Source of the DNA: Candidatus Latescibacterota bacterium
Lineage (GTDB): Bacteria > Latescibacterota > UBA2968 > UBA8231
Length of the DNA: 64,000 nucleotides
NCBI GenBank assembly: GCA_965248355.1
Contig: OZ252098.1
Coordinates: 224,001 to 288,000 of the forward strand
Direction: 5' to 3'
Under the pieces are notes generated by a model, which saw only the letters and a list, made by a program, of their open reading frames with translations, did not search any database and was not told the DNA's origin. This document shows, piece after piece, positions 5,832 through 56,507 of this stretch (position 1 is its first letter; every line of letters begins with the position of its first letter). The translations under genes and the position numbers were made by a program.

Positions 5832-5832
5832 G

Positions 5833-13200: not shown

Positions 13201-13512
13201 CTCCTCGGCCACCTGTCGGAGATCGAGGCTTACAACGAGTACGCCGCGGGTGAGTCCCTGTTCGACGGCAAGCAGTACGAGGAGGCCATCGAGGTCTTCA
13301 AAGAGGTGATCGAGCGCTTTCCGGAGAGCGACCAGGCGGTCAATGCGGCCGTCAATATCGCCTCGGCGTACATGGCCCTCGAGGAATACCGCAAGGCGGC
13401 CGAGGAGTTCCAGCAGGTCGTCCAGAAATACGGGGGGATACAGCGGTTCTCCCCCCAGGTGGATTTCTCGAGGCAGCAGTTGCAGGCGCTCGAGGAAGCG
13501 CGTGTCCTGTGA
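10219..13512 (+). CDS. Very large TPR protein (BamD/CpoB-like repeats), 1097 aa
   Basis: RBS GAGGAG; N-terminal hydrophobic anchor; many repeats of the YP.S..A..A.Y..G type. Confidence 0.9.
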   Translation: MTLWIGLIALGLGLGSSLFIPVPQTLKTNFDAGQSLYALGEYEGAILEYSKIVKFDSRAVRTDSVRVSFGDELELPVMAAAWYQLGNARMRSGQHEEAVDAFREVIAMESVDEDFRSLVQFRVAETRFLQKEFEKAAEEYKRYAELFPTSDLAGEAYFYSGWSQFNLERYDDAIGTLRGMLEAYPGDRYASDSQFRIASSYYEKEQYQKAVDEAEIVLEAYPSSPVIAQATYLKAQAFDRMERSDEAIASYREVRDLYDRMYELLRGSFREGKNVDFDNYRQLFETSSLRVAEIYRRNGQFEEAYQELIAAQETAEERFYKAKVQMRLGDNYMEWGQKVEDQAQKQERFEEAYTTYNQVIELYGDTPYPPIAQYNKGEARYFARDYGEARQEYTAVATLYPDSETGLRANALYSAGWSSEKLDDFEAALDMYGQVVESFPRSDQAPLCLLRMGRVNTEQQRFDEAIEAYRIIAEDYGETRHAADANYGLGLLYKQRGELDSAIDAFSRVGREAREVYVASLIEAANIHIEAGRSEEGRQVLDQLLAGVTGDRVLEAQAHYQIAQLDLNNDNYLDAINRYTKVIDEYPESDVIREVRYGRALAYHKANRFSRALADYQWLLHQNLPESMELKVNFAMALSFAAQGQDAEATELLTQVIESGDETLARNAQLQLISMAEKQDPEDAIRTYEDMLSRLTTQEDKVRVLIRMASAYFRLGRYEQSVAASQQLLDLATDAEDIANALFVQGNSHFRAGELEKAIQTYQTIVDNYPQIGWARNAQFQIGAAYNQMSGDGNVQYLPYVAEAFQSYYTAYADDEKAVYAYYYSAFAEYRMGKWRESSETFQELASRFPRSEFAPQSLFRAGEAVFNLAQGESRENKKGVFRDAMRKYDSVLGRYPRSDVVDDALYNKAWAIIHLSDLGEEYTKADALPFFERIVAEYPDGDFGAASQFTLGDYYYGEKEYDLASASYRRFLELFPEQRLKAKDRALRRKASVLLGHLSEIEAYNEYAAGESLFDGKQYEEAIEVFKEVIERFPESDQAVNAAVNIASAYMALEEYRKAAEEFQQVVQKYGGIQRFSPQVDFSRQQLQALEEARVL

Positions 13513-13596: not shown

Positions 13597-14247
13597 ATGC
13601 TGGAGTTTTTCCAAGACGGCGGACCGTTCATGTGGCCCCTTGGCCTGTGGTCCATCATGGCCCTCGGGTTCTTCATCGAGCGCATCGTCACCTATGCGCG
13701 GATGCGCTCCGAGGATGAGTTAGCCGAGGTCACCAACGACGTCACCGGCCGCATCGACTCCGGGGCTTCCTTCGATCAGCTCCAGGAGTACTGCAGGGAG
13801 ATCGGCCGTCTGGAGGGTGACGTCTACGCCGAGGGGATCGAGCGCTTCGGGCACCTCTCCCGCGAGCAGCGCAGCATCGAGGAGATGCGCGCCGAGATGA
13901 ACGGCACGGTAGAGCGTGCCGCGAGCAGCTATCTGGAGCGCTACCTGTCGGTGATCCAGTTCGTGGCCAGCTCGGTCGTGCTCCTCGGCCTGCTGGGAAC
14001 GGTGAACGGAATGATCCGCGCCTTCGAAGGCATCGCCGAGAAGGGACTGGGTGAGCCGACCATCGTCGCCGCCGGCATCTCCGAGGCGCTGATCACGACG
14101 GTGACGGGTCTGGTCATCGCCGTGCCCTCCCTGGCCATCTACACCTACTTTTCCCAGCGCGCCGAGGGCAAGGGGATTCAGTTCGAGCCCTACGGTCATG
14201 GATTCGTAGATGCCCTGCTGCGCCGCTGGCAGGGCCAGACCGTCTAA
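13597..14247 (+). CDS. exbB: MotA/TolQ/ExbB proton-channel family protein
   Basis: GGPFMWPL start; LLGLLGTVNGMIRAF; AGISEALITTVTGLVIAVP; RBS AAGGAGG. Confidence 0.93.
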   Translation: MLEFFQDGGPFMWPLGLWSIMALGFFIERIVTYARMRSEDELAEVTNDVTGRIDSGASFDQLQEYCREIGRLEGDVYAEGIERFGHLSREQRSIEEMRAEMNGTVERAASSYLERYLSVIQFVASSVVLLGLLGTVNGMIRAFEGIAEKGLGEPTIVAAGISEALITTVTGLVIAVPSLAIYTYFSQRAEGKGIQFEPYGHGFVDALLRRWQGQTV

Positions 14248-14269
14248 CCGCGGGTGCGCGGAGGCTGAG

Positions 14270-14677
14270 ATGGCACAGGAAAAGAGGCGCTACGACGAGA
14301 AGCCGGACCTCACGCCGATGATCGACGTGGTGTTCCAGTTGCTGATCTTCTTCATGGTAACGGCGGTCTTCGCCATCACGCCCGGTCTCGACATCAAGCT
14401 GCCGGAGGCGGAGGAGGCCCAGGCGCCCGAGAAGGAGAACCTGTTCATCGTCGTCGATCAGGACGGCAACATGAAACTGAATCACCAGACGGTGACTTTC
14501 GCCAACCTGAAGGACCGGATCCAGGAGAAGCGCCAGATCCTGGACAACACGACGATGATCATCATACAAGGGGACGAGCGCGCCACCCACGGCCAGATCG
14601 TGCAGATCATGGATATCGCGCGCCAAGTGGGGGTGGTCGACCAGATCATCGCCACCGAGCCGCAACGAGGGAAGTAG
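14270..14677 (+). CDS. exbD: ExbD/TolR biopolymer transport protein
   Basis: LTPMIDVVFQLLIFFMV with the essential Asp; IIQGDERATHGQIVQIMD. Confidence 0.93.
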   Translation: MAQEKRRYDEKPDLTPMIDVVFQLLIFFMVTAVFAITPGLDIKLPEAEEAQAPEKENLFIVVDQDGNMKLNHQTVTFANLKDRIQEKRQILDNTTMIIIQGDERATHGQIVQIMDIARQVGVVDQIIATEPQRGK

Positions 14678-16158: not shown

Positions 16159-17913
16159 TCAGGATCCACCGGACCACCCGGCTCCCTGTCTCAGGCTGTG
16201 GGCGCCGGCGGCCAGTTGCCAGCGCTCCCGGCTGCCGTCGGACCAGCGTACGGTGACCGACGCCCCGGAAGCGCCGTCCAGTCCCACGTGAATCCTCGGA
16301 TCCGAGGCGGACAGGTAGCTGCCGGCGCCGTGAACCTGGCGGTGGAGCACGCGCTCGCCGAACCGGACCTCGATTCGGGCCCCCAGCCCGCTCCGATTGC
16401 CGGGCTGTCCCGAGACCAGGCTCAGGCTCAGCCCGGTGGATCCGCTCCGGTCGTTGCGCAGCAGGCGTGGCCCCCCTCCGTTGGTGGTGAGAATCAGATC
16501 CTCATCGCCGTCGTTGTCGTAGTCTCCGGCGGTCAGGGCGCGGCTCACGCGGGGCCGGGCCTCGGCCATCCACGACGCCTCTTCGGTGAAGCGGCCGGCG
16601 CCATCGTTGACCAGCAACTGGTCGGGTTGGGCATGTGACAGGCTGCTGTCGATGTCGGCGATGCGGTCGAGGACGTGACCGTTGGCGACCGCCAGATCGA
16701 GATCGCCATCGGCGTCGACGTCGAACAGGGCGGCGCCGAATCCGAGGGGGAGGAAGCTGGGTGAGGCCAGTCCGCGGAATCGGGTCTCGTCCGTGTACGC
16801 CGGGGCGTGCCGTCCGCCGTGGCGGTAGAGGGTGTTCGTCTCGCGGGAGAAGTTGGCCACAACCAGGTCCGGCCAGCCGTCTCCGTCCACGTCTCCGAAG
16901 TCCGCGCCCATGCCGGCCTCGGCGCGGCCGTCGGCATTGAACCGCACTCCCCAGGCCAGGCTGGTCTCCGTTACCCGGGGTGAGCCGCTGGTCCCGGTGT
17001 CGTTCCGATAGAGGAAGTTGGCCTCGCCGTCGTTGGCCACGAACCAGTCCGTGTCGCCATCGAGGTCGATGTCGGCCATGGCCAGCCCGAGACCGCGTCC
17101 GACGCCGGAAAGGCCTGCCTCCAAGGTCACGTCGGTCATCCTCAGGTCTCCCGTGCCGGCCTCGTTGAGGTAGAGGAGGTCCCGGGTCCCCGGATACCGG
17201 TCCGGATCGCAGTAGGTACGGATCGAGCCCCGGCGGCAGACCGGGATCCGGGCCGCGTCGAAGGGGACGTAGTTGACGACGACGAGGTCGAGGTCTCCGT
17301 CGAGATCGATGTCGACGAAGCCCGTTCCCGTGCCCCATCGGCGATCGTCGACGCCCATGGCTTCGGCCCGCTCCTGGAACCGCCGGTTGCTCTGAAGCAG
17401 CAGGGCGTTCGGGCCGACGTTGGTGACGAACAGATCGACGCCGCCGTCTCCATCCACGTCGGCGGCGGCCACCCCCATCCCGTAGCCGTCCTCTCCGGCT
17501 CCGGTGGCGTCGGTGACATCGACGAACCGGACGGGAAAGCCGGACCTCCCTCCGAGGTTCCGGTAAAGCCGGTTGGTCGGGGGCGCACGGACCCCATCGG
17601 AGTCCAGGAGAGTCCCGCCCTGGATCAGGTAGAGGTCCAGCCAGCCGTCGCCGTCGTAGTCGACCCAGGCGGCCCCTGCGCCAAAGGTCTCGGGACAGGC
17701 GAAGCGGCCGTCGGCGCCGCTGTCGTGCACGAAGTCGATCCCCGCGGACGTGGTGACATCGGAGAAGACTCTCGGCGGGGCCCCGGCGGAAGGATCTCCG
17801 CCCGAAAGCCCGCAGCCGAGACAGGAGAGCGAGAGGATGAAGCCGAAGAGCCTGGAGGGACGGGACAGAAGGGATGGCCCGGCAAGGCGTGGGGGCCCCG
17901 CCGCCTGGGTCAC
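16159..17913 (-). CDS. CRTAC1-family (FG-GAP + ASPIC/UnbV) protein
   Basis: DYDGDGWLDLY repeats; GAGSYLSASDPRIHVGL; lipobox-like CLGC. Start uncertain (GTG 17913 chosen). Confidence 0.88.
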   Translation of the reverse strand: MTQAAGPPRLAGPSLLSRPSRLFGFILSLSCLGCGLSGGDPSAGAPPRVFSDVTTSAGIDFVHDSGADGRFACPETFGAGAAWVDYDGDGWLDLYLIQGGTLLDSDGVRAPPTNRLYRNLGGRSGFPVRFVDVTDATGAGEDGYGMGVAAADVDGDGGVDLFVTNVGPNALLLQSNRRFQERAEAMGVDDRRWGTGTGFVDIDLDGDLDLVVVNYVPFDAARIPVCRRGSIRTYCDPDRYPGTRDLLYLNEAGTGDLRMTDVTLEAGLSGVGRGLGLAMADIDLDGDTDWFVANDGEANFLYRNDTGTSGSPRVTETSLAWGVRFNADGRAEAGMGADFGDVDGDGWPDLVVANFSRETNTLYRHGGRHAPAYTDETRFRGLASPSFLPLGFGAALFDVDADGDLDLAVANGHVLDRIADIDSSLSHAQPDQLLVNDGAGRFTEEASWMAEARPRVSRALTAGDYDNDGDEDLILTTNGGGPRLLRNDRSGSTGLSLSLVSGQPGNRSGLGARIEVRFGERVLHRQVHGAGSYLSASDPRIHVGLDGASGASVTVRWSDGSRERWQLAAGAHSLRQGAGWSGGS

Positions 17914-17972
17914 GGCGGCGGGGCCGTGTGGTGCCGAGCCGGGAAGATACGACCTGTCGGCGGGCAGGACCG

Positions 17973-18647
17973 TCAGAGCGCGTGCTTGATGGTCCCCCAG
18001 GTGACCGCCGTAACCTGGGTGGGGACCTCCACCGAGGCCTGCTGGCCGGGCAGGGCGCCCGGGGTGCCGAGCTCGGTGGACCCCGGATCCCAGCCGCTGG
18101 ACTCGGTGGCCGTGGTCCATGAGTCCTTCTCGTCGCCGCGGGCCTCCAGGTCGGTCCGGACCATGGCCGCCTTCGTCTCTCCGCTCAGACCGCCGAAGGG
18201 CGCGCCCCGTCCGTCGTCGATCCGGTCGATGACCGATCCCGACTCCGGCGGACCGTCGTACAGACGGAGGTGGAGCTTGGTGTTGGGCAGAGACACCTGT
18301 GGATCGACGAGAGAGGGAACTGTCGCCAGGCGCGAGCGCTCGTCGTCATGGCCGTAGTTGGAGATGAGAAAGACCTCGCCCGGCGCGAGCTGGCCGGACT
18401 CGATGAGCACCATCACGTTCTCGTCTTCGCCGTCGCCTCGGGTGATCGTCCAGCCGGCGAGGTCCACCGTCTCGGAACCGCGGTTGAAGAGCTCGATCCA
18501 CTCGTCGGAGCTGGAGGCGGAGCTACCCGCCCACATCAGCTCGCTCACGACGACGGACCCCGGCTCCTGGCCGGCGCCGGCGCCGACGCCGGCCAGGATC
18601 AGCCAGCCCGTCAGCCAGGGGGATGTGGGCAACACTCGAGTCAGCAT
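17973..18647 (-). CDS. Secreted lamin-tail-domain protein with C-terminal TWGxIK motif
   Basis: VVVSELMW...DEWIELFNRGSETVDLAGWTI is the LTD signature, with GTPG near the end; ends TQVTAVTWGTIKHAL; RBS GGGAGG. Confidence 0.85.
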   Translation of the reverse strand: MLTRVLPTSPWLTGWLILAGVGAGAGQEPGSVVVSELMWAGSSASSSDEWIELFNRGSETVDLAGWTITRGDGEDENVMVLIESGQLAPGEVFLISNYGHDDERSRLATVPSLVDPQVSLPNTKLHLRLYDGPPESGSVIDRIDDGRGAPFGGLSGETKAAMVRTDLEARGDEKDSWTTATESSGWDPGSTELGTPGALPGQQASVEVPTQVTAVTWGTIKHAL

Positions 18648-18714
18648 GGGGATGCCTCCCTTGAAGGGGTGTGGGGTGGGCGAGGAGACCTCTCTCGCCT
18701 TTCGGGGCGCCGTC

Positions 18715-18730
18715 TGCAACTCCCGTGCCG
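18715..18730 (-). promoter_or_regulatory. Putative sigma54 (-24/-12) promoter upstream of the LTD gene
   Basis: Minus strand CGGCACG-GGAG-TTGCA with exact GG-N10-GC spacing. Confidence 0.55.
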
Positions 18731-18909
18731 GCCCCCGTCCCCATGCTGAATCCCTCTGTCCTGCAGTCGGTTGGGAGATCTACTCGTGAATTCGGCCAGG
18801 CCGCGGTCGGTGTGGCCGTGGGCTCACACTCGTGGCGACGGAAGGACCCGGCCCGCAGGCATCTCCCTCCACGGAGGGCCGAAGAGGCTGGTGGGGAGCT
18901 GGAGTTGGA

Positions 18910-20352
18910 TCAGCTCCGGCGCCGCAGGGCTTCCTCGGTCAGCCGCTGCACCCCGCCGAAGCCGGCGTTGCTCATGAACAGCACCGTATCGCCCCGGGCT
19001 GCGAGGCCCGCCAGGTGCGCGGCGATCCTCTCGGCCGTGGGAAGGTGCCACGCCTCGAGGCCGCGGGACCGAAGATTCTCCACGAGACGGTCGGGCGAGA
19101 AGGGTTCCTCCCCGCCGCTGCGCTCCGGCCGCGGAACCGGCCCGACGATGACCGCATCGGCCTCGGCGAAGGCCTGCACGTAGCGCGACTCGAAGGTCGC
19201 CCTGGCGTTCGAGGCGCTGGCGGGCTCGAAGACCGCCCACAGCCGGCCGCGAGGAAAGGACCGGCGCACTCCGGCCAGGGTCTGGCCCACCGCCGTCGGA
19301 TGGTGGGCGAAGTCATCGATGAGCCTCACGCCGCCGATGGTGCCGAGGTGCTCCTGCCTGCGGCGCACCCCGGCGAAGCCGGACAGGGCGGCGCCGCAAC
19401 GCTCCGGGCCGGCTCCGGCAAAGGCGGCCGCCGCCAGCGCGCCCAGGGCATTGCGCAGGTTGTGCTCGCCGCCCAGGGACAGCCGCAGCCGGGCAAGGTG
19501 TCCCCCGGGGGCCACGAGGTCGAAGGACTGGCCCTGCTCGTCGGTCTCAACGTCGCAGGCCCGCCAGTGATTGTCGCGACCCAGGCCGAAGGTCTGCACC
19601 GGGGCCGGGGCTTCGGCCACGGTCTCGGCGACCACGGGATCATCTCCGTTGGCCAGGATGAGACCGGTCCGCGGCACCTGGTTGACGACCTGACGGAAGG
19701 CGCGGCGAATCTCGTCCAGGTCCCGGTAGATATCGGCGTGATCGAACTCGATGTTGTTGACGATGAGGACGTGGGGACGGTAGTACAGGAACTTCGCCGT
19801 CTTTGCGAAGTAGGCGCTGTCGTACTCGTCTCCCTCGATGACGAACCAGGGATCCGTGCCCAGGTGATAGGGACGGTCCAGGTCCCGCGGAAGGCCGGCC
19901 ACGAGCCAGGAGGGATCGAGCCCCCCGGACCGCAGAAGAACCGCGGCCATGGCCGTGGTGGTCGTCTTGCCGTGAGTGCCCGTGGCCACGATCGGTCGAT
20001 GGCCTGCCAGGAACAGGTCGCGCAGGATCTCGGGCAGGCTGGTGTAGGGGAGCCCGGCGTCGAGAACGGCTTCCAGCTCCGGATTGCCCCGGGAAACGGC
20101 GTTGCCCACGACGACGAGATCGGGCGCCGGATCGAGATTACCCGGATCGAATCCCTCGAAGAGGCGGATGCCCTCGGCCCGCAGAAAGTCGCTCAGGGGC
20201 GGGTAGACGTTGCGGTCGGACCCGGTGACGCGGTAGCCCCGGCTCTTCAGCAGGCCGGCCAGGGAGCCCATGGCCGTGCCGCAGGCGGCGATCAGATGGA
20301 TATGAGCGTCGGGAGAGAGTGGGATCACGTCATCCGCGGGAGCCGGGGCCAT
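18910..20352 (-). CDS. mpl: Murein peptide ligase (Mpl, MurC-like)
   Basis: HIHLIAACGTAMGSLA; GTHGKTTT; EGDEYDSAYF; EFDHADIY; DDFAHHPTAV; MSNAGFGG. Confidence 0.92.
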   Translation of the reverse strand: MAPAPADDVIPLSPDAHIHLIAACGTAMGSLAGLLKSRGYRVTGSDRNVYPPLSDFLRAEGIRLFEGFDPGNLDPAPDLVVVGNAVSRGNPELEAVLDAGLPYTSLPEILRDLFLAGHRPIVATGTHGKTTTTAMAAVLLRSGGLDPSWLVAGLPRDLDRPYHLGTDPWFVIEGDEYDSAYFAKTAKFLYYRPHVLIVNNIEFDHADIYRDLDEIRRAFRQVVNQVPRTGLILANGDDPVVAETVAEAPAPVQTFGLGRDNHWRACDVETDEQGQSFDLVAPGGHLARLRLSLGGEHNLRNALGALAAAAFAGAGPERCGAALSGFAGVRRRQEHLGTIGGVRLIDDFAHHPTAVGQTLAGVRRSFPRGRLWAVFEPASASNARATFESRYVQAFAEADAVIVGPVPRPERSGGEEPFSPDRLVENLRSRGLEAWHLPTAERIAAHLAGLAARGDTVLFMSNAGFGGVQRLTEEALRRRS

Positions 20353-25571: not shown

Positions 25572-25687
25572 GGGGGGGGGCGCTCACAAGCCCGGCCCGG
25601 CCGATGCGGGCTCGAAATCCGGCCTCGGGAAAACGGTGGTTACTTCATGACTGACAACGAGATACGTCATTGCGAGGCGCTGCCGCC

Positions 25688-25716
25688 AGTGTAATGAGCC
25701 CCTGGAGAGGTGTCAA
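25688..25716 (-). promoter_or_regulatory. Near-consensus sigma70 promoter for rel
   Basis: TTGACA-N17-TACACT on the minus strand; overlaps the start of the divergent NusG-II gene. Confidence 0.7.
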
Positions 25717-26095
25717 GCCGCCGCCCTGGCCCGCGCCTCCCAGCCCGGGGGACATCCTCCTCGTGGCGGCCGTGCTGGCCGCGGCGGCCCTGCTCGTGGC
25801 CCGGCCCGAGGGGCGGACGCCCCGGTCGGCGAGCGTGCGGGTGGGCCACGAGGTGGTGCGCGTCCTGCCGCTGGACGAAGGGGCGCGGCTCGACGTGACC
25901 GGGCCGGTCGGTGTGAGCCAGCTCCTGGTCGAGGACGGCCGCATCCGCGTCCTCGCATCTCCTTGCGCGCAGCAGGTCTGCGTCCGCCGGGGATGGTTGC
26001 GTCAGGTGGGAGACGTGGCGGTCTGCGTTCCCAACCGGCTCGTGGTCCGGGTCGAAGGGGCGGGCGGGCCCTCCTTCGACGGGGTCAGCCGCTGA
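25694..26095 (+). CDS. NusG domain II-containing protein (DUF1312-like)
   Basis: TM helix followed by RVLASPCAQQVCVRRGW...VCVPNRLVV with three conserved Cys. Confidence 0.85.
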   Translation: MSPWRGVKPPPWPAPPSPGDILLVAAVLAAAALLVARPEGRTPRSASVRVGHEVVRVLPLDEGARLDVTGPVGVSQLLVEDGRIRVLASPCAQQVCVRRGWLRQVGDVAVCVPNRLVVRVEGAGGPSFDGVSR

Positions 26096-26625
26096 TGGTC
26101 TCCGCCGGACGGCGCGTGGCCTTTCTGGGGCTGATGTCGGCCGTGGCCCTGATCCTGTTCGTCTTCGAGGCGGCGGTGCCGCGGCCCCTGCCGTGGATGA
26201 AGCTGGGGCTCGGCAACGCCGCCGTGCTGGCGACGCTGCTGCTCTTCGGCGGCCCTCCGGCCATCGCCGTGGGCGCCGTGAAGGTCCTCGTGGGCGGGCT
26301 GCTGAGCGGCGGTCTGGCCGGGCCGGCTTCGGTCATCGGGGGAAGCGCCGCGCTCACGAGTCTGGCCACGATGATCGGTCTCCACCGGTTCCTCCCCCGA
26401 CTGTTCAGTCCCGTGGGTCTGAGCGTGGCGGGAGCGGTCGTCCACCAGGCCACGCAGTTGCTGGTGGCCGAGATCTACCTGGCTCAGGCGGGTCTGCTCC
26501 GGCTGCTGCCCCTCTTTCTCGTGGGCGGGGTCCTGTCCGGAGCGATGACGGGACTGGTCACCTACTTCGCGGTGAGGGCGCTCATGCGAGCCGGTCACGG
26601 GAGCGGTCCCGCGGCCCGGGGATGA
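26095..26625 (+). CDS. Gx transporter family protein (heptaprenyl-PP synthase component I-like)
   Basis: EAAVPRPLPWMKLGLGN; GLSVAGAVVHQATQL; TGATG coupling to the upstream gene. Confidence 0.85.
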   Translation: MVSAGRRVAFLGLMSAVALILFVFEAAVPRPLPWMKLGLGNAAVLATLLLFGGPPAIAVGAVKVLVGGLLSGGLAGPASVIGGSAALTSLATMIGLHRFLPRLFSPVGLSVAGAVVHQATQLLVAEIYLAQAGLLRLLPLFLVGGVLSGAMTGLVTYFAVRALMRAGHGSGPAARG

Positions 26626-26665: not shown

Positions 26666-29600
26666 ATGACCGGTATCCGCCTGTCCCCCCGACTGCGCGC
26701 AGGAACCTTCGGCCTGCTCCTCGCCCTCGGCGCGGCGCAAGCCGCGGCAGAGGTCGACTTCGAGGCCCTTCGCCAGGTGGCCCCCGAGGACCGCCTGCGG
26801 CAGACCGTAGGCTTTTTCTCCGGCCTCGGTTCCCGGGTCGCCGGCTATCCCGGCGCCGAGCGGGCGGCCCTGCACATCCACCGCCAGTTCCGGCAGATCG
26901 GCCTGCACGACATCACCTTCCACAAGTACGACGTCTCCGTGCCCATCGACCGGGGGGGGGCGCTGAGGATCGCGGGCGGGCCTTCGGTCCGGCTCCACGG
27001 ACTGTGGCCGAACCTGGTGCGCACGTCGACCCTTCCCGACGGCGGCATCCACGGTCGGCTGATCTACGGTGGACGGGGGGAGTTCGAGGAGCTCGACGGT
27101 CAGGACGTGGAGGGAGCCGTCGTCGTCCTCGACTTCAACTCCGGTGACAACTGGCTCAACAGCGCCTTCCTCGGCGCCGCCGCCGTGGTCTTCATCGAGC
27201 CGGACTCGACCGTCTATCTCGAGGGGGAGCGGAAGTTCCTCACCATGCCCCTCGATCTGCCCCGGTTCTGGGTGAGCGGGTCGGATGGCCGGCTGCTGCG
27301 GAAGGCCATCGGGCCGGACGGACCGCCGCCCTCGGCCCATCTCGAGTACCGCATGGACTGGGAGCGGCGCCCGGCGTGGAACGTCATGGGCTTCATCCCC
27401 GGGTACGACCCCCTGCTCCAGAAGGACGTGATCGTCCTGGAGTCCTACTACGATGCCATGTCGGTGGTTCCCGCCCTCGCGCCCGGCGCCGAGCAGGCGG
27501 CCGGCATCACGGGTCTGCTGGAGCTGGCCCGCTACTTCCGCCAGCATCCGCCGGCGCGCTCGGTCCTGTTCCTGGCCACCTCGGCTCACCACCTCGCCCT
27601 GCGCGGCATCGACGACTTCATCCAGCGCTATCTGCGTGACGAGAATCCCTTCATCGACCGCATGGTCCTGCGCCGGGTCATCGAAGGGGCCCTGGCCCGC
27701 GGGCTGATCGGCGAGGGAGAGGACGGCGTCACCTACCAGCTCGGCGACCAGGTCTTCACCGGCAAGGAAGCGCTGGTACGCTCCGTGGCCGACCTCGACA
27801 CCGTCCTCGTGCGCGCCGTGGCCCAGGCCTCGATGGAGGACGGGGAGGATCTGATCGTCCAGGACGACGGCGCCTGGCGGGTCCGGTACCAGGACGGAGG
27901 AAAGATCCGCCAGGCCTCCTTCGACACCTCCGAAGACCTGCTCCGCGAGCTCGGCGACGACGAGGACCTCCGGCTGGGATTCTACCGCGAGTGGGTGGAT
28001 CCGAAGGTCGATTCCCTCTCCGTGAACCTGTTCATCAGTCTCGACCTGTCGACGCAGACCGACGAGCTGGGCATCTGGAACAGCAACTCGAGCTTTTACT
28101 ACAAGCGCTACTTCGCGCCCTTCGGCAAGAACTTCATGAACTACTCGCGAAAGGTGAGCCGCGAGCTCGGTTACAGCTTCCGCGACGTTCTGGTCAACGG
28201 AATCAGTCCCGAAGGGGGGAAGAGCTGGGAGACCTTCGTCCCCGGCGAGATCTCCGTCAACAGCGAGCTCGTGCTGACCACGGGCACCCCGGCCCTCGCC
28301 TTCGTCACCGTGAACGACGCCCGGTTTCTCGTCGACACGCCCCTCGACCGGCCGCAGAACATCCGCTACGACAACCTCTCGCGGCAGATCCGCGCCCTGG
28401 CGGGGATGTTCCACATGGCCTTCGAGGATCCGGAGCTCTTCCCCGACTTCAAGATGCGTCTCAAGGACACGATGCGGTCCCTGAAGGCCAGGACCATGAT
28501 CTTCCCCAGGCGCAGCATCGTTCCCGACCTGCCGCGCACCGGCGCCATCGGCGTCGTGCGCAACGGCAAGAAGAAGTCGTACAAGGGGGTGCGCGGCGAG
28601 TACTTCGAGGTCGTCGACGACGACGGGTCTTTCTTCGTCAACCGCATCCGCGTCGAGCAGGTCCAGGTGGAGGGCTACCGCATGGATCCGGCCACCGGCC
28701 GGGTCAGCTACGCGCCGGATCGCGGCATCCAGGGCGCCCAGGCCTACCCGATGCTGATCAAGATGGACTGGCGCGACAAGGAGTGGATGGTCGTTCTGTT
28801 CCCCTGTGAGGCCTTCAACTTCTTCGACATCGTCGACCCGCGCTACCTCACCAAGCTCTCCGAGGTCACCGTCTTCGACGAGACCAACGCCTCTCCCGTC
28901 GAGTACGGATACACCATCGGGGAAGGACCCTCGGCCAGGGACGAACCGGTGGGCGTGCTCTTCGCCCGCCCGGGGGCCTTCGTGAAGATGGGCTTCGGCG
29001 CCGGCATCCTCGGGTTCCGCTCCCTGCTGCTGAACTCCAAGAACCCCGACGACAAGGAGGAGGCCCTGGGCGAGGGCTTCGCCATGGAGCCGGGGAGCTC
29101 CTTCGCGCGCACCTCCTACCAGTCGGCCAAGGACATGTGGACCCTCGACGAGGCCCGCATGCGCGAGCTGAGGGGGTTCGCCATCGAGAACCAGCGCCTG
29201 AACGATCTGCACGAGCGCGCCCGGGGGGAGCTGGACCTGGCCGAAGAGGCCCTGGGGCGCAAGGAGTGGAGCGAGTTCGTGCGCCACACGCGCTCGGCCA
29301 TCGGACTGGAGTCACGGGCCTACCCCGACGTCAAGTCGACCCAGAACGACGTCATCCAGGGCATCATCTTCTTCATGGCCCTCGTCCTGCCCTGCGCCTA
29401 CTTCGCCGAGCGCCTGCTGATCACGGCGGCCACCGTCCAGCGCCAGATCATGGGCTTCGCCGGCATCTTCCTCGTCATCTGGATCGTCCTCTCCTTCGTC
29501 CACCCGGCCTTCGAACTGTCCAACCCCTTCGTCATCCTGCTGGCCTTCGTCATCCTCGTGCTCGCGGTCCTCGTCATGTGGATCATCTCCGGCCGGTTCA

Positions 29601-31483
29601 ACGAGCAGATGAAGAAGCTGCGCACCGAGGTGGCCGTCATCCACGACACCGACGTGAGCCGCTCCAGCGCCTCCCTCACCGCCTTCCTCCTGGGCATCTC
29701 CAACATGAAGCGCCGCAAGCTGCGCACGGCGCTGACCTTCGTCACCCTGTTGCTGCTCACCTTCACGGTCCTGTCCTTCACCTCCATCCAGACGTCCCTG
29801 CGCTACAACCAGATCGAGCGCGACAACGAGGGGCTCTACGAGGGCCTGCTGATCCGCAGCAAGGCGTGGACGCCCATGGAGGAGTCGGTTCTCGAGTACG
29901 CCCACAGCAACTTCGGCGACCGGGCCGCCATCGCGCCGAGGAGCTGGTACGACAACAAGAAGAAGGCCCACATCAAGATCAAGTACGGCGATGACGCCCA
30001 TAACGCCCTCGGCGTTCTCGGCCTGACCCCGGTCGAGACCGAGGTGACCGGTCTCGACCAGGCCCTGCTGGCGGGCCGCTGGTTCCGACCCGGCGAGGGG
30101 CGGGTCTGCATTCTGCCCAACGACATGCTCGGCGCGGACAAGCTCGGCATCGACATGATCGACGTCGACCGCGGCACCGTCACGGTACGCGTCTTCGGCG
30201 AGCGGTTCACCGTCATCGGCATCATCAACTCCACGCGCATGAAGGAGCTGAAGGATCTCGACGACGAGACCATGACCCCCGCCGACTTCGCCGTCACCGG
30301 CGGCCAGGCGGTGCAGGAGATCGCCGAGGAGGAGCAGCGGGAGAAGCAGGGCCTCGAGGACGCGCAGGTGGTGATCAAGCCCTTCGTCCACCTCGAGCCG
30401 GCCAACACCCTGCTCATGCCGTACCACACGTTGCGCAACGTGGGCAGCGGCAACCCCCTGCAGTCCGTGGCCGTCCGCTTCGAGGAGGGAGTCGACGAGC
30501 GCGCCGAGATCGAGCAGTTCCTGTCGCGGCTGGCGGTGACCCTCTTCGCCGGCATCCAGGAGCCGGGCGACGACTACATCAAGGTGTCGATCTACAGCTC
30601 CCTGGGCATGACCTCCCTGTCGGGCGTGGCCAACCTCTTCGTGCCGATCCTCATCGCCGCCCTCATCGTGCTCAACACGATGATGGGCAGCGTGTACGAG
30701 CGCTTCCGGGAGATCGGCATCTATTCCTCGGTGGGCCTGGCGCCGGGACACATCGCCTGGTTGTTCATGGCCGAGTCCTGCGTCTACTCCGTCCTCGGGG
30801 TGGTGGCCGGCTATCTCGTGGGCCAGGTCACGGCCACCCTCCTGACGGAGTTCGGGGTGGTCGCGGGCTTCACCCTCAACTATTCGTCCCTGTCGGCCGT
30901 GCTCTCCTGCATCCTGGTGATGGCCGTGGTCATGCTCTCCACCATCTATCCGGCCCGCAGGGCCTCGCAGTTGGCGGTGCCCGACGTGACCCGCCGCTGG
31001 CGGCTGCCGCGCCCGGAGGGTGACGTCTGGCACTTCGAGTTCCCCTTCACCGTGGCCGGCCGCGACGTGGTCGGCCTGTCGGTCTTCCTCATCGGCTACT
31101 TCGACTCCTACTCCGAGGAGTCGATCGGCACCTTCTACACCGACGGCGCCAAGCTGGGACGCCTCGACTCCGAGCACGGCGAGGGCTACACCATCGACAT
31201 GAACATCTGGCTGGCGCCCTTCGACCTGGGGGTCAGCCAGCACGTGGTCATCCGCGCCCTGCCCGAGGCCGAGCACAACATCTACCAGGTTCAGCTCGAC
31301 ATCCGCCGCCTGAGCGGCGAGGACGCCTCGTGGCGGCGCGTCAACCAGCGTTTCATGAACGTCATCCGCAAGCAGTTCCTCATCTGGCGCACCGTCGACG
31401 CCGAGGCCAAGGAGGCCTACCGGCGCCAGGGACAGGAGCTGCTGGCCGGCGCCCGCGCCGACTCCGTCTCCGCCTCCGCCTGA
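26666..31483 (+). CDS. Fusion of a PA/M28-peptidase-like ectodomain with an FtsX/MacB-like permease, ~1600 aa
   Basis: Signal peptide; SRVAGYPG, NVMGFIPG..DVIVLESYYD, GITGLLELAR (M28 fold); NMKRRKLRTALT, VYERFREIGIYSSVG, YPARRAS (FtsX/MacB). Confidence 0.85.
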   Translation: MTGIRLSPRLRAGTFGLLLALGAAQAAAEVDFEALRQVAPEDRLRQTVGFFSGLGSRVAGYPGAERAALHIHRQFRQIGLHDITFHKYDVSVPIDRGGALRIAGGPSVRLHGLWPNLVRTSTLPDGGIHGRLIYGGRGEFEELDGQDVEGAVVVLDFNSGDNWLNSAFLGAAAVVFIEPDSTVYLEGERKFLTMPLDLPRFWVSGSDGRLLRKAIGPDGPPPSAHLEYRMDWERRPAWNVMGFIPGYDPLLQKDVIVLESYYDAMSVVPALAPGAEQAAGITGLLELARYFRQHPPARSVLFLATSAHHLALRGIDDFIQRYLRDENPFIDRMVLRRVIEGALARGLIGEGEDGVTYQLGDQVFTGKEALVRSVADLDTVLVRAVAQASMEDGEDLIVQDDGAWRVRYQDGGKIRQASFDTSEDLLRELGDDEDLRLGFYREWVDPKVDSLSVNLFISLDLSTQTDELGIWNSNSSFYYKRYFAPFGKNFMNYSRKVSRELGYSFRDVLVNGISPEGGKSWETFVPGEISVNSELVLTTGTPALAFVTVNDARFLVDTPLDRPQNIRYDNLSRQIRALAGMFHMAFEDPELFPDFKMRLKDTMRSLKARTMIFPRRSIVPDLPRTGAIGVVRNGKKKSYKGVRGEYFEVVDDDGSFFVNRIRVEQVQVEGYRMDPATGRVSYAPDRGIQGAQAYPMLIKMDWRDKEWMVVLFPCEAFNFFDIVDPRYLTKLSEVTVFDETNASPVEYGYTIGEGPSARDEPVGVLFARPGAFVKMGFGAGILGFRSLLLNSKNPDDKEEALGEGFAMEPGSSFARTSYQSAKDMWTLDEARMRELRGFAIENQRLNDLHERARGELDLAEEALGRKEWSEFVRHTRSAIGLESRAYPDVKSTQNDVIQGIIFFMALVLPCAYFAERLLITAATVQRQIMGFAGIFLVIWIVLSFVHPAFELSNPFVILLAFVILVLAVLVMWIISGRFNEQMKKLRTEVAVIHDTDVSRSSASLTAFLLGISNMKRRKLRTALTFVTLLLLTFTVLSFTSIQTSLRYNQIERDNEGLYEGLLIRSKAWTPMEESVLEYAHSNFGDRAAIAPRSWYDNKKKAHIKIKYGDDAHNALGVLGLTPVETEVTGLDQALLAGRWFRPGEGRVCILPNDMLGADKLGIDMIDVDRGTVTVRVFGERFTVIGIINSTRMKELKDLDDETMTPADFAVTGGQAVQEIAEEEQREKQGLEDAQVVIKPFVHLEPANTLLMPYHTLRNVGSGNPLQSVAVRFEEGVDERAEIEQFLSRLAVTLFAGIQEPGDDYIKVSIYSSLGMTSLSGVANLFVPILIAALIVLNTMMGSVYERFREIGIYSSVGLAPGHIAWLFMAESCVYSVLGVVAGYLVGQVTATLLTEFGVVAGFTLNYSSLSAVLSCILVMAVVMLSTIYPARRASQLAVPDVTRRWRLPRPEGDVWHFEFPFTVAGRDVVGLSVFLIGYFDSYSEESIGTFYTDGAKLGRLDSEHGEGYTIDMNIWLAPFDLGVSQHVVIRALPEAEHNIYQVQLDIRRLSGEDASWRRVNQRFMNVIRKQFLIWRTVDAEAKEAYRRQGQELLAGARADSVSASA

Positions 31484-31502: not shown

Positions 31503-33989
31503 ATGCTGCGACGCAAGAGCAACGCCAATCAGGAAATCGAGGAGTACCGCGACCTCCTCGAGACGCCGACAGAGTTCGAGGACGGCTTTACGCGCAAGGC
31601 GATTCTCGGGGTCTTCTTCGTCGCCTTCATCATGATCCCGGGGAACATGTACCTCAGCCTCATGGTGGGCGGTTCCCTCGGCGCCGCCGCGGAGTGGGTG
31701 ACGATCATCCTCTTCGCCGAGATCACCAAGCGGTCCTTCACCTCCCTGACGCGCCAGGAGGTCTACGTCCTCTACTACGTGGCGGCGGGGCTGATCGCCG
31801 CCGAGACGGGCGCTTTCGAGGGACTGCTGTGGAACCAGTACCTGCGCCAGTCGCCGCCGGCCCAGCAGTTCGGCATCGCCAACCTGATCCCCGACTGGTG
31901 GGCGCCGCCCCTGGAGTCGCCGGCCCTGCTGCAGCGGACTTTCCTGCACACGGACTGGATCATCCCTATCGGGCTCCTGCTGGCGCAGTTCGTGATCTCG
32001 CGGGTCTCGTGGTTCACCATGGCCTACGTGCTCTTCCGGCTCAACTCCGACTACGAGCGCCTGCCCTTCCCCTTCGCGCCCGTGGCCGCCCAGGGCGCCA
32101 CGGCCCTGGCCGAGACCACCCAGGGTGTGGAATCGTGGCGCTGGAGGGTGTTCTCCGCCGGCGCCATGATCGGACTGGTCTTCGGAACCCTGTACGTGGC
32201 GATCCCGGCGATCTCCGGCTCCCTGCTCACCAAGCCGATCCAGCTGATCCCCATCCCCTTCGTCGATTTCACCCAAGTCACGGGCAACTTCATTCCGGCC
32301 ACGCCCCTCGGGTTCACCGCCCACCTGGGGCCGATCTTCGCCGGCCTCGTCATGCCCTTCTGGGGGGTCATGGGCACCTTCCTCGGCGTCGTCGCCCACT
32401 CGGTGGCCAACCCGATCCTGTACGACCTCGGCTACCTCGAGATCTGGCAACCGGGCATGGGCGCCATCGAGACCTTCTTCGTCAACTCCGTCGACTTCTG
32501 GATGAGCTTCGGCATCGGCACGACCATCGCCATCGCCCTCATCGGCGTCTGGCAGGTCTTCCAGGGTGTGCGCACCGCCAGGGCCGCCAGGGCCGCCGGC
32601 GGGGTAGGCCGCACCTGGGCCGTGCCCGAAGGACGCGGCGATTTCCCCCTGTGGATCGCCCTGTCCCTGTACTCCCTGACCGCCGCCGGCCTGATCGCCA
32701 TCGCCTGGATCTTCCTGCCCGCCTTCCACCAGTTCATCTGGTTCTTCCTGTTCTTCGGCTTCGTGCTGACCCCGCTCCAGTCCTTCGTGAACGCCCGTCT
32801 CGTGGGCATGGTGGGGCAGACGATCGAAATCCCGTACGTGCGCGAGGCGACGATCATCTTCTCCGGGTACCAGGGCGTGGACATCTGGTTCATGCCCTTC
32901 CCCCTGGGCAACTACGGCGCCCAGACCCAGAAGTTCCGCGAGATCGAGCTCACGGGGACCAAGTTCACGAGCATCATCAAGGCCGAGATCGTGATGGTGC
33001 CCATCGTCCTGTTCGCCACCTTCCTGTACTCCTCCTACATCTGGAAGCTGGCCCCCATCCCCTCGGCCTCGTACCCCTACGCCCAGGTCATGTGGCGCCT
33101 GCGGGCTCTCCAGACCTGCATCTGGTTCACGGGCACCCTGAGGAGCGAGCTGACGGAGTCGCCGGAGCGCAACAGCGCCACCTGGCTGCCGTCGAACCTG
33201 GTGGAAGGGGAGTGGTGGTACTGGCGCGTGCGCGCCGCCGACCGCCAGTGGATCGAGTCGCAGGGAAAGCGCGGGGAAGCCGGTCCCTGGTCCCCGAAGC
33301 GGGCCTTCTACACCCACTTCCGCGAAGGCCTGCCCGAGCACGTGCTGTCCATGCCGCCCGGGGCCCTGGAGGAGACGGCGCCGGCCGCGCCCGGCGGCCT
33401 GGGGCTGCGCGCCGAGGGGCCGGCCACGGTGAGCCTGCCGAACGCCGCGGAGCTGGTCCGCGACGCCGTGGCCTCTCCGGACCGCCTGCCGGAGCTGATC
33501 GAGGGCGACAGGCCGGTGATCGGCATCGCCACCACGCCGCGCCCGGCCCTGCGGGCTTCCAGCGGCCAGGCCCTGCCCGCCGGCTGGGAGTACTACTTCG
33601 CCGTCGATACCGATCCGAACTTCACCAGCCCCTGGCTCCAGCGGTCCAGCGACGAGCCCTGGCTGTTCCGGGCGATCAAGAAAGAGATCATCATCGCCGG
33701 GACCGTCGTCGGCCTGGGCAGCTACATCTTCCTGTCCGCCTTCGGGTTGCCGATCCTCCTCGTCTTCGGGTACGTGCGTGCCCTGACGACGATCCCCCAC
33801 TGGATGGTCACCGAGGTCATCGGCGCCCTGCTGGCGCGCTACTACTTCTGGAACAAGTACGGACGGCAGCAGTGGCGCACCTATGCGCCGGTCCTCGCCG
33901 TCGGCTTCGCCTGCGGCATGGCGCTCATGGGCATGGCGTCCATCTCCATCGCCCTGATCCAGAAGTCGGTATCGGTCCTCATCTTCTAG
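31503..33989 (+). CDS. OPT-like (oligopeptide transporter superfamily) membrane protein with an inserted soluble domain
   Basis: Many TM helices; FTRKAILG, DYERLPFPFAPV and APIPSASYP resemble OPT/peptide-transporter motifs; a hydrophilic insert spans about 33140-33660. Confidence 0.75.
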   Translation: MLRRKSNANQEIEEYRDLLETPTEFEDGFTRKAILGVFFVAFIMIPGNMYLSLMVGGSLGAAAEWVTIILFAEITKRSFTSLTRQEVYVLYYVAAGLIAAETGAFEGLLWNQYLRQSPPAQQFGIANLIPDWWAPPLESPALLQRTFLHTDWIIPIGLLLAQFVISRVSWFTMAYVLFRLNSDYERLPFPFAPVAAQGATALAETTQGVESWRWRVFSAGAMIGLVFGTLYVAIPAISGSLLTKPIQLIPIPFVDFTQVTGNFIPATPLGFTAHLGPIFAGLVMPFWGVMGTFLGVVAHSVANPILYDLGYLEIWQPGMGAIETFFVNSVDFWMSFGIGTTIAIALIGVWQVFQGVRTARAARAAGGVGRTWAVPEGRGDFPLWIALSLYSLTAAGLIAIAWIFLPAFHQFIWFFLFFGFVLTPLQSFVNARLVGMVGQTIEIPYVREATIIFSGYQGVDIWFMPFPLGNYGAQTQKFREIELTGTKFTSIIKAEIVMVPIVLFATFLYSSYIWKLAPIPSASYPYAQVMWRLRALQTCIWFTGTLRSELTESPERNSATWLPSNLVEGEWWYWRVRAADRQWIESQGKRGEAGPWSPKRAFYTHFREGLPEHVLSMPPGALEETAPAAPGGLGLRAEGPATVSLPNAAELVRDAVASPDRLPELIEGDRPVIGIATTPRPALRASSGQALPAGWEYYFAVDTDPNFTSPWLQRSSDEPWLFRAIKKEIIIAGTVVGLGSYIFLSAFGLPILLVFGYVRALTTIPHWMVTEVIGALLARYYFWNKYGRQQWRTYAPVLAVGFACGMALMGMASISIALIQKSVSVLIF

Positions 33990-34010: not shown

Positions 34011-35135
34011 ATGTCCGAGCGTGACGGGCTGCCGGCGGGGGAGGGCAGGGCGCCGGAAGGGACCGCCTCCGGGGCCGGATCCTCCTTGGCCCCCGGGGGC
34101 CGCCGCTACGACTTCGGCTGGCAGGGGATCCGGCTGTGTGTCCCGCAGGAGTGGGAGCTGGGAAAGGTCGACGGAGACGCGGCCAGCGGCTACGCCCGGC
34201 TCGACGACACGCGCATGGTGCGGGCCGAGATCGAGTGGCGGGCGCCCCCCAAGCGCGGCATGCGCCGGCCCGTGGAGGACCTGGTGGGCCGCTATATCGA
34301 CCAGTTGCAGAAGAAGGCGGACAAGGCGGGCATGAAGCTGCGCGTCGAACGACGCGCGAAGTTCCTCAAGGACAAGCGCTGGCTCGAGGGCAGCGAGTAC
34401 GAGACCTTCGTCTGGCAGGCGGACTACCGCGCCTACAACCTGGCCCGGGCCTGCCCGGTCTGCGGCCGCATCGTCCTGCTGCGGGTGCTGGCGGGAAAGG
34501 ACGACGGCGGCGCCGAGATCGGCCTGGTGAACGAGATCCTGCCCACCCTGGAGGACCACCCGCGCGGCGAGCTGCAGTTCTGGAGCCTCTACGGCCTCAC
34601 CTTTCACGTCCCCCCGGACTTTCAGCTCACCGAGAAGGAGCTGAAGTCGGGCCACGTGAAGCTGATCTTCGAGAAGGACGGGGGCGCACAGACCCTGCGC
34701 GTGCATCGCCTGAGCATGGCCCACATGCTGTTGAAGGATACGGGCATCATGGACTGGTACCCCTCCTTCTTCCGCAAGGACCTGCGCGACGTCAATCACG
34801 AGGTCGCCGAGGCCACCATACGCGGCCACCAGGGCCTGCGAGTCAGCGGCCGGCCTCAGAGCCGCTGGCGCCAGATCCTGCGGCCCTTGCCGTTCGTCAA
34901 CCCGAGGCCGAGGCGCCACCTGCGGGGCGTCGCGTGGCACTGCCCCGACCTGAATCGCATCTGCATCGTCGAGCACCTGTTCAAGAAGGTCGATCAGGCC
35001 GGCGAGATCCTCGACGAGGTCATGGACGGATATGTTTGCCACGAAGAAGAAGCCGCAGCTGACCCGGGAGGCGATGATGGAGTCGCGCCCGGCGCGCAAC
35101 GAGTTGCTGGCGTGGGAGGACACGGAGGAGGGTGA
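34011..35135 (+). CDS. Hypothetical cytoplasmic protein with an internal two-fold repeat
   Basis: Coherent ORF with host-like codon usage; repeated W.G...VP..W/F.L motifs; the last ~30 codons overlap the next gene. Confidence 0.7.
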   Translation: MSERDGLPAGEGRAPEGTASGAGSSLAPGGRRYDFGWQGIRLCVPQEWELGKVDGDAASGYARLDDTRMVRAEIEWRAPPKRGMRRPVEDLVGRYIDQLQKKADKAGMKLRVERRAKFLKDKRWLEGSEYETFVWQADYRAYNLARACPVCGRIVLLRVLAGKDDGGAEIGLVNEILPTLEDHPRGELQFWSLYGLTFHVPPDFQLTEKELKSGHVKLIFEKDGGAQTLRVHRLSMAHMLLKDTGIMDWYPSFFRKDLRDVNHEVAEATIRGHQGLRVSGRPQSRWRQILRPLPFVNPRPRRHLRGVAWHCPDLNRICIVEHLFKKVDQAGEILDEVMDGYVCHEEEAAADPGGDDGVAPGAQRVAGVGGHGGG

Positions 35136-35475
35136 GGTCCGGATCACGGTGACCCGCCAGGAGACCTGGAAGACGCGCCTGCTGTCGAAGGTCTTCTACA
35201 TCCCCGAGAAGCGGACCATCACCCTCGACGAGGTCGGCGCCCAGGTGTGGCAGATGTGCGACGGCCGCACCTCCGTGGCGCAGATGATCGAAGGCCTCCG
35301 GGACCACTACAAGCTCGACCGCAAGGAGGCGGAGGTCTCCCTCCTGTCCTATCTGAAGACCCTCGGCCAGAAGCGGTTCGTCGGGTTCCTCGTGGAGGGC
35401 GCCGGCAGGACGCCCCCCGCGGAAGGGGGTGGCCGGAGAGGCAAGGATGCCAGCGGCAAGAAGTGGAAACGGTGA
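35032..35475 (+). CDS. PqqD-family / RiPP recognition element-like protein
   Basis: ITLDEVGAQVWQMCDGRTSVAQMIEGL..HY.L...EAEVSLLSYLKTLGQKRFV matches the PqqD winged-helix pattern. Confidence 0.85.
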   Translation: MFATKKKPQLTREAMMESRPARNELLAWEDTEEGEVRITVTRQETWKTRLLSKVFYIPEKRTITLDEVGAQVWQMCDGRTSVAQMIEGLRDHYKLDRKEAEVSLLSYLKTLGQKRFVGFLVEGAGRTPPAEGGGRRGKDASGKKWKR

Positions 35476-51161: not shown

Positions 51162-51204
51162 CGGGTCGATCCGTCCTTTCTGATGGGTTGGTCAGGCGGT
51201 GAGG

Positions 51205-53848: not shown

Positions 53849-53871
53849 AGGTAGTCTGCCTCCCTCTCTCT

Positions 53872-56503: not shown

Positions 56504-56507
56504 GGGA

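Follow-up and report, generated by a model that had tools for sequence, protein, structure and literature searches.

A non-canonical, probably non-proteolytic M28-fold head on a Type VII ABC-like membrane protein of Candidatus Latescibacterota

Introduction

The closest described relatives of the protein domain reported here are soluble, secreted and active di-zinc aminopeptidases of family M28 in which a PA domain is inserted in the M28 fold, i.e. AM-1 of Aneurinibacillus (PDB 2ek8), BSAP/YwaD of Bacillus subtilis (6hc6), PaAP of Pseudomonas (8ac7) and a Shewanella protein (3iib). Our subject is the extracytoplasmic N-terminal PA+M28 domain (hereafter the head) of a 1,618-aa membrane protein encoded on a stretch of 64,000 nucleotides from a Candidatus Latescibacterota bacterium (assembly GCA_965248355.1, contig OZ252098.1, positions 224,001 to 288,000; this whole stretch is called the window, and positions refer to it unless another source is named). 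The head shares with these aminopeptidases the placing of the PA domain and a motif skeleton consisting of D276, S279, P286-G-A, G327, D473 and T-P-x-D. In contrast to them, it has substitutions at four of five zinc-ligand positions and at the general base, carries an inserted subdomain of about 115 aa, and is fused to a membrane part of about 1,000 aa.

The inert M28 ectodomains of the transferrin receptor (TfR), nicastrin and nicalin are eukaryotic. Like nicalin of the BOS complex (7tm3, 6w6l), nicastrin of gamma-secretase (5a63) and TfR, the head appears to be a membrane-anchored M28 ectodomain without a working di-zinc site. In the eukaryotic proteins, which have single-pass anchors and other partners, the ectodomain serves recognition on a membrane machine. 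The head differs in being fused to an FtsX-type permease and in that its substituted residues are themselves near-invariant, with a pattern of losses unlike that of nicalin.

A further comparison is offered by the Type VII ATP-binding cassette (ABC) systems FtsEX-EnvC and YbbAP-TesA, which act on periplasmic partners, including hydrolases and activators, and of which YbbP has extra transmembrane (TM) helices beyond the usual four (PMC12646458). Here, too, a MacB/FtsX-type permease would work outside the membrane via a hydrolase-fold protein, and extra TM helices are found, as in YbbP. While the described systems have a separate partner and an ATPase gene in the operon, the hydrolase-fold domain is fused in our case, 16 of 18 loci (four from the own genome and 14 from other genomes of the phylum) have no linked ATPase gene, and the genes conserved nearby code for OPT-fold and DUF6785 membrane proteins. 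Finally, the E151H variant of the Aeromonas proteolytica aminopeptidase (2anp) also has a His at the general-base position of the M28 fold; in this variant, however, a single engineered change lies in an intact di-zinc site, whereas in the head the metal ligands are changed as well.

No description of a module consisting of an M28 head, an FtsX permease and an OPT-fold protein was found in the literature searched, which lay mostly outside subscription journals, and the same literature yielded no paper on DUF6785 or on bacterial nicalin-like M28 aminopeptidases. In the parts of the Latescibacter literature covered, M28 is merely named among peptidase families, and among the matches listed for Type VII ABC, OPT and peptidase no title dealt with such a fusion. 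New here are the residue-level picture of the head, the separation of family-wide from clade-specific substitutions, the weighing of the nicalin likeness and the nature of the insertion. We read the head as the non-canonical, probably non-proteolytic ligand-binding part of a Type VII ABC-like/OPT membrane module, with the chances for and against this full reading about evenly balanced.

Results and discussion

The head has an M28 fold

An earlier note on the window had proposed an M28-like domain with altered motifs at positions 27430-28350. The region lies in one open frame, and Pfam, profile and AlphaFold 2 (AF2) fold matches agree on this assignment. The Pfam family Peptidase_M28 (PF04389) matched aa 252-333 (E 3.6e-6; 27.3 bits, cut-off 21.3), a match confined to positions 1-78 of the 193-position profile. 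Residues 41-620 were modelled by AF2 from a hand-picked alignment of 68 rows (the query and 67 of 269 homologs), with a mean predicted local distance difference test (pLDDT) of 94.9 and a predicted template modelling score (pTM) of 0.94.

Searching with this model in Foldseek placed PA-domain M28 aminopeptidases on top, i.e. 2ek8 (E 1.2e-21) followed by BSAP/YwaD and 3iib, with GCPII, PaAP and the transferrin receptor at lower ranks. The VIA fold search, which is independent of Foldseek and of which the best 50 rows were considered (Z 18.1 at rank 50), likewise had 2ek8 in its first row (Z 30.0), and listed 3iib (Z 28.2) and the fungal LapA (Z 28.1); for the PA-M28 aminopeptidases as a group, the values listed were 30.0, 28.2 and 26.0. 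The Aeromonas aminopeptidase 1rtq was matched at Z 29.1 with a root mean square deviation of 2.5 over 266 of its 291 residues, and this match spans the whole core (model residues 1-563). TfR (Z 26.3), glutaminyl cyclases (Z 24-25), GCPII (Z 23.2) and a GPI-transamidase chain (7w72_A, Z 19.3) followed. As modelled, the head has the fold of the M28 catalytic domain.

Comparison of a profile of the same 68 rows with the PDB again gave 2ek8 (E 1.2e-23) and YwaD (E 1.4e-20), followed by the Aeromonas aminopeptidase (E 5e-11 to 5e-9), nicalin (E 9.3e-10), TfR (E 1e-5) and, without significance, nicastrin (E 0.07). The head probably descends from PA-domain M28 aminopeptidases.

The active-site residues are replaced

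Residue equivalences were taken from HMMER alignments to PDB chains, from the fold match to 1rtq, and from a MAFFT comparison with another M28 protein encoded in this genome, whose active-site columns are canonical (H / D / EE / D / H). The six M28 active-site positions are occupied by Y274, E289, H321, H322, D473 and D570, where the canonical residues are H, D, E, E, D and H. In the HMMER alignments to solved aminopeptidases, SYYD stands against SHHD and the HH pair against EE.

Most motif readings of the earlier note were recovered in this way. The YYD said to replace HxD is Y274-Y275-D276, aligned by both HMMER and MAFFT; the Asp of the SLD motif, said to be kept, is D473; and GAEQ in place of GADD corresponds to G287-A288-E289-Q290, with the register of E289 uncertain by one position since the GA-loop is one residue shorter. 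On the alignments, E289 is most simply read as the counterpart of the bridging Asp, because members with Asp instead of E289 (23 sequences) have the same short loop. The DTPLD in place of the terminal HTxxD is found at D570-D574, where the alignment of this last motif to 2ek8 (domain 2) is not significant alone and serves for the register only.

The five co-catalytic zinc ligands His, Asp, Glu, Asp and His are thus not found as a set at these positions, which hold Tyr274, Glu289, His322, Asp473 and Asp570. Nor is the Glu general base present ahead of the Glu ligand; its place is taken by His321. To judge from these residues, the head probably lacks the classical co-catalytic di-zinc centre, and hydrolysis by the M28 mechanism is unlikely.

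The replaced residues are under strong constraint

Conservation was analysed in two sets, i.e. the query with 120 close homologs of at least 49 % identity (n=121), and a hand-picked family alignment of 114 sequences (the query and 113 of 269 homologs; 32-91 % identity). From an additional hmmalign alignment of 156 rows only first-half positions were used, the second half lacking for about 73 rows.

Among the close homologs, Y274 is found in 115 (Phe in four, gaps in two), E289 in 119/119, H321 in 120/120 and H322 in 116/120, while D473, D570 and D574 are each present in 121/121. Across the family, position 274 is Tyr in 98 members, His in seven and Phe in four, and position 276 is Asp in all 114. 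Position 289 holds Glu in 86, Asp in 14 and other residues in 14. Position 473 is Asp in 111 members, position 564 Asp in 105, position 566 Arg in 111, position 570 Asp in 96, position 572 Pro in 112 and position 574 Asp in 113, and G327 is kept in 113. The mean column identity of this alignment is 18 %, as against the near-invariant pocket positions, with D276, H321, D473, R566 and D574 forming an invariant core.

The canonical set H-D-E-E-D-H is absent from all 114 sequences. The commonest combinations at positions 274/289/321/322/473/570 are YEHHDD (28 sequences) and YEHFDD (23 sequences). The three other paralogs of the genome read YFD/E/HF/D/A, YYD/E/HF/D/D and HYD/E/HF/D/D at the corresponding motifs.

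On these alignments, the replacement of residues is a matter of strong constraint, not decay. That the head is a functionless, drifting peptidase relic would agree with the loss of the canonical ligands and with the partial coverage of the Pfam profile (78 of 193 positions), but is contradicted by the near-invariance of the replaced positions over such a range of identities, by the very confident fold, and by the retention of the domain in all four paralogs and in 138 of 151 genomes; we find this explanation scarcely credible. The pocket is under strong selection and therefore in use.

The earlier note had taken HH as the replacement of the catalytic EE. Both His residues are present in the query, but only the first is a family trait. 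H321 occurs in 113 of the 114 members, whereas position 322 is Phe in 47, His in 36, Gly in nine, Tyr in eight and Cys in six; the HH pair is found in all 23 sequences of at least 47 % identity and in 13 scattered ones. H321 is, on this sampling, family-wide and H322 clade-specific, with Phe in plurality elsewhere.

This bears on the question of whether the head is an active hydrolase with a re-wired centre, in which one metal would be held by E289/H322/D570 or by Y274/E289/D473, with H321 as general base, and a peptide, amide or ester presented by the permease would be cleaved. We consider this unlikely, although it is the strongest of the alternatives. It would explain why the pocket residues show the degree of conservation expected of a catalytic site, and in the clade of the query the Zn1 positions hold Glu, His and Asp, i.e. 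the usual ligand chemistry with the positions swapped. In addition, the best single-sequence match in the PDB is the E151H variant 2anp (E 3.4e-4), which has His at the first Glu of the EE pair; glutaminyl cyclases, which are close to the model in the fold search, are single-zinc enzymes of the same fold; and YbbAP-TesA is a Type VII ABC system that feeds a hydrolase (PMC12646458). However, position 322 is more often Phe than His, position 289 is non-acidic in 14 members and D570 is replaced in 18, so that there is no full ligand triad family-wide. Moreover, H322 shows no co-variation with an acidic residue 289 and D570, which occur together in 29 of the 36 members with His and in 58 of the 78 without. 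A new His-based metal site, offered in the earlier note as an alternative, is weakened by the same figures. Its other suggestion, a non-catalytic recognition domain, fares better in that the ligand set and the Glu base have gone under constraint, which fits a changed, probably non-peptidase role.

The nicalin likeness is local

The earlier note had also pointed to a resemblance to nicalin and nicastrin. When a profile was built from the M28 cores of the four paralogs, nicalin indeed came first in the PDB (E 8.8e-7), ahead of the E151H aminopeptidase (E 1.3e-5), YwaD (E 1.1e-4) and other Aeromonas aminopeptidase chains including the wild type (E 3.4e-4 to 4.6e-4), and because of this ranking we regard the likeness as a real, local one. 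In addition, the YD and GA motifs lie equally far apart in nicalin and in the head. In the alignment, nicalin still has the His of HxD, and its residues facing H321 and position 322 are Gly and Lys; judged by these residues, the losses look independent.

A specific common ancestry, with the head as a prokaryotic member of the nicalin/nicastrin lineage and a gatekeeper of a membrane complex, is in our opinion very unlikely. Nicalin is significant with the 68-sequence profile as well, and the head, too, is an ectodomain on a polytopic membrane machine. Against this, the bacterial PA-M28 enzymes score far higher with that full profile and lead the fold search (Z 28-30), nicalin leads the Aeromonas aminopeptidase by no more than about 4-9 bits with the four-paralog profile, its pattern of losses is another one, and nicastrin is not significant. 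Neither nicalin nor nicastrin was among the best 50 VIA rows, an absence that is compatible with relatedness. The resemblance thus stands, while a specific kinship is not supported, the active PA-M28 aminopeptidases being closest in fold.

A folded subdomain is inserted beside the pocket

The long insertion that the earlier note described as interrupting the fold at about 27660-28020 is real, with slightly different boundaries (Table 1), and lies between the strand with the HH pair and that with D473. Rather than a disordered interruption, it is a folded subdomain: the AF2 model shows helices and two small sheets, with a mean pLDDT of 92-97 in blocks of 10 residues. Few of its positions are conserved. 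It is missing or much shorter in paralogs 2-4, and among the 114 representatives the insertion site holds fewer than 40 residues in 82, at least 100 in 19 and an intermediate number in 13. Of the 121 close homologs, 100 have at least 100 residues at this site and the other 21 have 12-28. The insertion is a lineage-specific accessory subdomain, folded and at a variable site.

A variable, fast-evolving subdomain beside the pocket is what one would expect of a protein-contact surface, and the head may act as a scaffold or as an allosteric activator like EnvC, i.e. a degenerate domain that switches another extracytoplasmic enzyme or the adjoining permease and has no small-molecule or peptide ligand of its own. 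FtsEX-type systems use a periplasmic activator that controls hydrolases (PMC12646458), and in 96 of the 98 long representatives described below head and permease form one polypeptide. On the other hand, conservation peaks at the positions of the old active site rather than on any identified surface, and the 18 loci have no target enzyme in common, only membrane permease genes. We hold this explanation to be improbable.

Architecture of the fusion protein

The head is followed by a second extracytoplasmic region, three additional TM helices, a MacB/FtsX-type module and a cytoplasmic tail (Table 1), so that the signal peptide precedes about 870 extracytoplasmic residues; this order of domains is derived from the Pfam matches and a hydropathy scan, which finds seven membrane segments past aa 908. 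The FtsX family (PF02687) matches aa 1338-1448 with E 2.2e-15 (57.2 bits, cut-off 25.5), while MacB_PCD, the MacB periplasmic core domain, matches aa 1044-1222 weakly (20.4 bits, under its cut-off of 27). The family profile matched MacB (5lil, chain residues 268-655) with E 3.2e-18.

Searching 1.84 billion cluster representatives yielded 2,472 clusters at E <= 1e-3, of which 681 (50 % identity) were at E <= 1e-30. The representatives of the best 150 clusters are mostly 1,400-1,700 aa long, and the FtsX module is present in 96 of the 98 that have at least 1,300 aa. In the Protein Atlas, aa 600-906 matched unnamed clusters only (best 0.81). The C-terminal domain, for which neither Pfam nor NCBIfam gave a match, could be a docking place for an ATPase or a regulator. 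Full-length homologs have 1,580-1,630 aa and up to 91 % identity, and their source labels are Latescibacterota and Gemmatimonadetes metagenome-assembled genomes.

The first in-frame start codon is TTG 26627, two bases past the stop of the upstream gene. From the translation, ATG 26666 is the more likely start, since the signal peptide begins there.

Table 1. Features of the fusion gene and its partner gene, with positions in the window
Feature	Residues (aa)	Position	Strand	Basis and remarks
Whole gene, membrane protein of 1,618 aa		26627..31483	+	Single open reading frame (ORF), GC content at third codon positions (GC3) 0.94
Signal peptide	14-40	26666..26746	+	Read from the translation: basic stretch, hydrophobic core, Ala-rich end
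PA + M28-fold ectodomain (head)	41-620	26747..28486	+	AF2 model, VIA, Foldseek, Pfam PF04389
Y274-Y275-D276, in place of HxD	274-276	27446..27454	+	Zn2 His ligand replaced by Tyr, Asp kept; HMMER and MAFFT alignments
P286-G-A-E289-Q290, in place of PGAxD	286-290	27482..27496	+	HMMER alignments; loop one residue shorter
H321-H322, at the positions of the catalytic Glu and the Zn1-ligand Glu	321-322	27587..27592	+	HMMER alignments
Inserted subdomain (~115 aa), between HH strand and D473 strand	~341-456	27647..27994 (approx.)	+	Alignments and AF2 model
D473, equivalent of the Zn2-ligand Asp (D179 of the Aeromonas aminopeptidase)	473	28043..28045	+	MAFFT alignment
D564-A-R566 ... D570-T-P-L-D574, in place of HTxxD	564-574	28316..28348	+	D570-D574 at 28334-28348; D564, R566 and D574 near-invariant
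Second extracytoplasmic region, no Pfam match	621-906	28487..29344	+	phmmer; recognised in 93/98 long representatives
Three extra TM helices	~908-993	29348..29605	+	Hydropathy scan
MacB/FtsX-type (Type VII ABC) permease: TM1, periplasmic core domain, TM2-4	~1020-1450	29684..30976	+	PF02687, MacB profile match, hydropathy
Conserved cytoplasmic C-terminal domain (168 aa)	1451-1618	30977..31480	+	phmmer; present in 92/98 long representatives
Partner gene, OPT-fold permease of 828 aa with Ig-like extracytoplasmic insert (beta-sandwich)	Insert ~545-716	31503..33989	+	AF2, VIA, Foldseek

The OPT-fold partner and the genetic neighbourhood

The gene directly downstream encodes an 828-aa membrane protein. 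Its AF2 model (pLDDT 77.4) matched barley Yellow Stripe 1 (YS1, OPT family; 7wsr_A) in the VIA search at Z 18.4 over 538 of 600 residues, with the next row at Z 7.1, and in Foldseek at E 6.7e-9, where the only two matches at E <= 1e-3 were both YS1. On this model, the partner has the OPT transmembrane fold. Sequence and profile searches gave no PDB match for it. Pfam assigns it to no family, and even with E values up to 10 allowed, neither this protein nor its counterparts at the three other paralogs matched a Pfam OPT profile.

The genome consists of one 5.5-Mb contig and contains four paralogs of the whole fusion protein. The M28 domain is kept in all four, and each is followed by a homolog of the 828-aa partner, the partners being 40-56 % identical. 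In the 18 loci, an OPT-fold gene lies directly downstream of the fusion gene in 15, a DUF6785/DUF6784 membrane gene (Pfam assignment) adjoins it in 13, and at least one of the two kinds is present in all 18. In a profile-profile comparison, the partner family and the DUF6785 proteins were not significantly related (probability 2.4 % and 1.3 %). Within the phylum sample, 138 of 151 genomes have a match to the fusion protein at E <= 1e-20, usually in several copies, and the 13 genomes without one all belong to one family.

An ABC ATPase gene was found within the flanks examined in two of the 18 loci only, in both cases of the MacB/LolD kind, upstream and on the same strand. The own genome encodes an unlinked MacB/LolD-type ATPase of 250 aa (G000:C1:1283485-1284237, minus strand) that is 52-57 % identical to those two; its neighbours are a uvrB-like and a dehydrogenase-like gene, with no permease gene beside it. 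This ATPase is a candidate for a motor shared by the four paralogs.

How the module might work

With the head as a ligand-binding part, the module can be pictured as follows. The acidic and aromatic pocket would bind a ligand, i.e. a peptide or an amine-bearing substrate; a separately encoded ATPase of the MacB/LolD type would drive the permease module; the permease would move the head by mechanotransmission, by analogy with FtsEX and EnvC or YbbAP and TesA (PMC12646458); and the head would capture or release cargo for the adjoining OPT-fold permease or permeases.

Several points weigh against this picture. Firstly, in the clade of the query the Zn1 set E289, H322 and D570 has the canonical composition of two carboxylates and one His, with His and carboxylate swapped, and the head may hold a mononuclear metal site; its ligand is putative. 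Secondly, a His in the place of the general base does not preclude catalysis, the E151H Aeromonas aminopeptidase being reportedly called 'functional' in the title of a paper. Thirdly, no ABC ATPase gene lies within the flanks examined in 16 of the 18 loci, and the ATP-driven step therefore rests on the unlinked candidate. Lastly, the OPT-fold match is to YS1, a metal-chelate transporter, and is silent on peptide cargo. A complex prediction of the head with the Ig-like insert of the partner (residues 540-722) scored 0.00 and is uninformative either way.

Going further, one might speculate, although we regard it as doubtful, that the head is the cargo-recognition (or a re-wired, His-dependent catalytic) element of an undescribed envelope machine, in which a receptor of aminopeptidase descent, operated by a Type VII ABC-style mechanical engine, would hand cargo to OPT-fold permeases or take it from them. 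If true, this would be a new coupling of ATP-driven mechanotransmission to secondary-type transporters, and the head would correspond in bacteria, whether through convergence or through deep ancestry, to the dead M28 gatekeepers nicalin, nicastrin and TfR. To our knowledge, inert M28 ectodomains have so far been described mainly from eukaryotes; here a large bacterial family appears to have gone the same way, and it has fixed a new set of residues at the old active site. Identifying what the pocket binds would assign a role to this conserved membrane module of three genes, and would put to the test whether mechanotransmission of the Type VII ABC kind can be used for import.

Other genes of the window and of the paralogous loci

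A 374-aa ORF downstream of the partner gene (34011-35135, plus strand) was considered as a further part of the module and rejected, since none of the other 17 loci encodes a homolog. Pfam gave no match for it, and its end is overlapped by a 147-aa ORF (35032-35475, plus strand) with a PqqD domain (E 3.4e-13). PqqD-type domains are peptide-recognition elements of pathways for ribosomally synthesized and post-translationally modified peptides (RiPPs); no other RiPP gene was seen near this ORF. Directly upstream of the fusion gene (25670-26625, plus strand), a NusG_II-domain protein and a membrane protein of the Hpre_diP_synt_I family are encoded, the latter being the one whose stop codon precedes TTG 26627 by two bases. 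The other loci showed no association of these genes with the module.

Elsewhere in the genome, membrane proteins with DUF6785 and DUF6784 (631-718 aa) flank paralogs at two loci (L009, 3380-7916, and L011, 12495-14390). Paralog 4 has transposase genes of the Mutator family and of the IS3 type (rve) directly upstream (L011, 4298-6773), and a second Mutator-like ORF lies downstream (18108-19379). Because transposase genes flank it, its position suggests a mobile or rearranged region.

The window further encodes two FG-GAP/ASPIC-UnbV repeat proteins (4095-6260 and 16159-18120, both minus strand), a TPR protein of 1,097 aa (10219-13512, plus strand) and an ExbB/ExbD pair (13597-14677, plus strand). 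An Opp/Dpp-like peptide ABC importer, consisting of SBP_bac_5, two BPD_transp_1 permeases and an ABC ATPase, is located at 48956-56794 on the minus strand.

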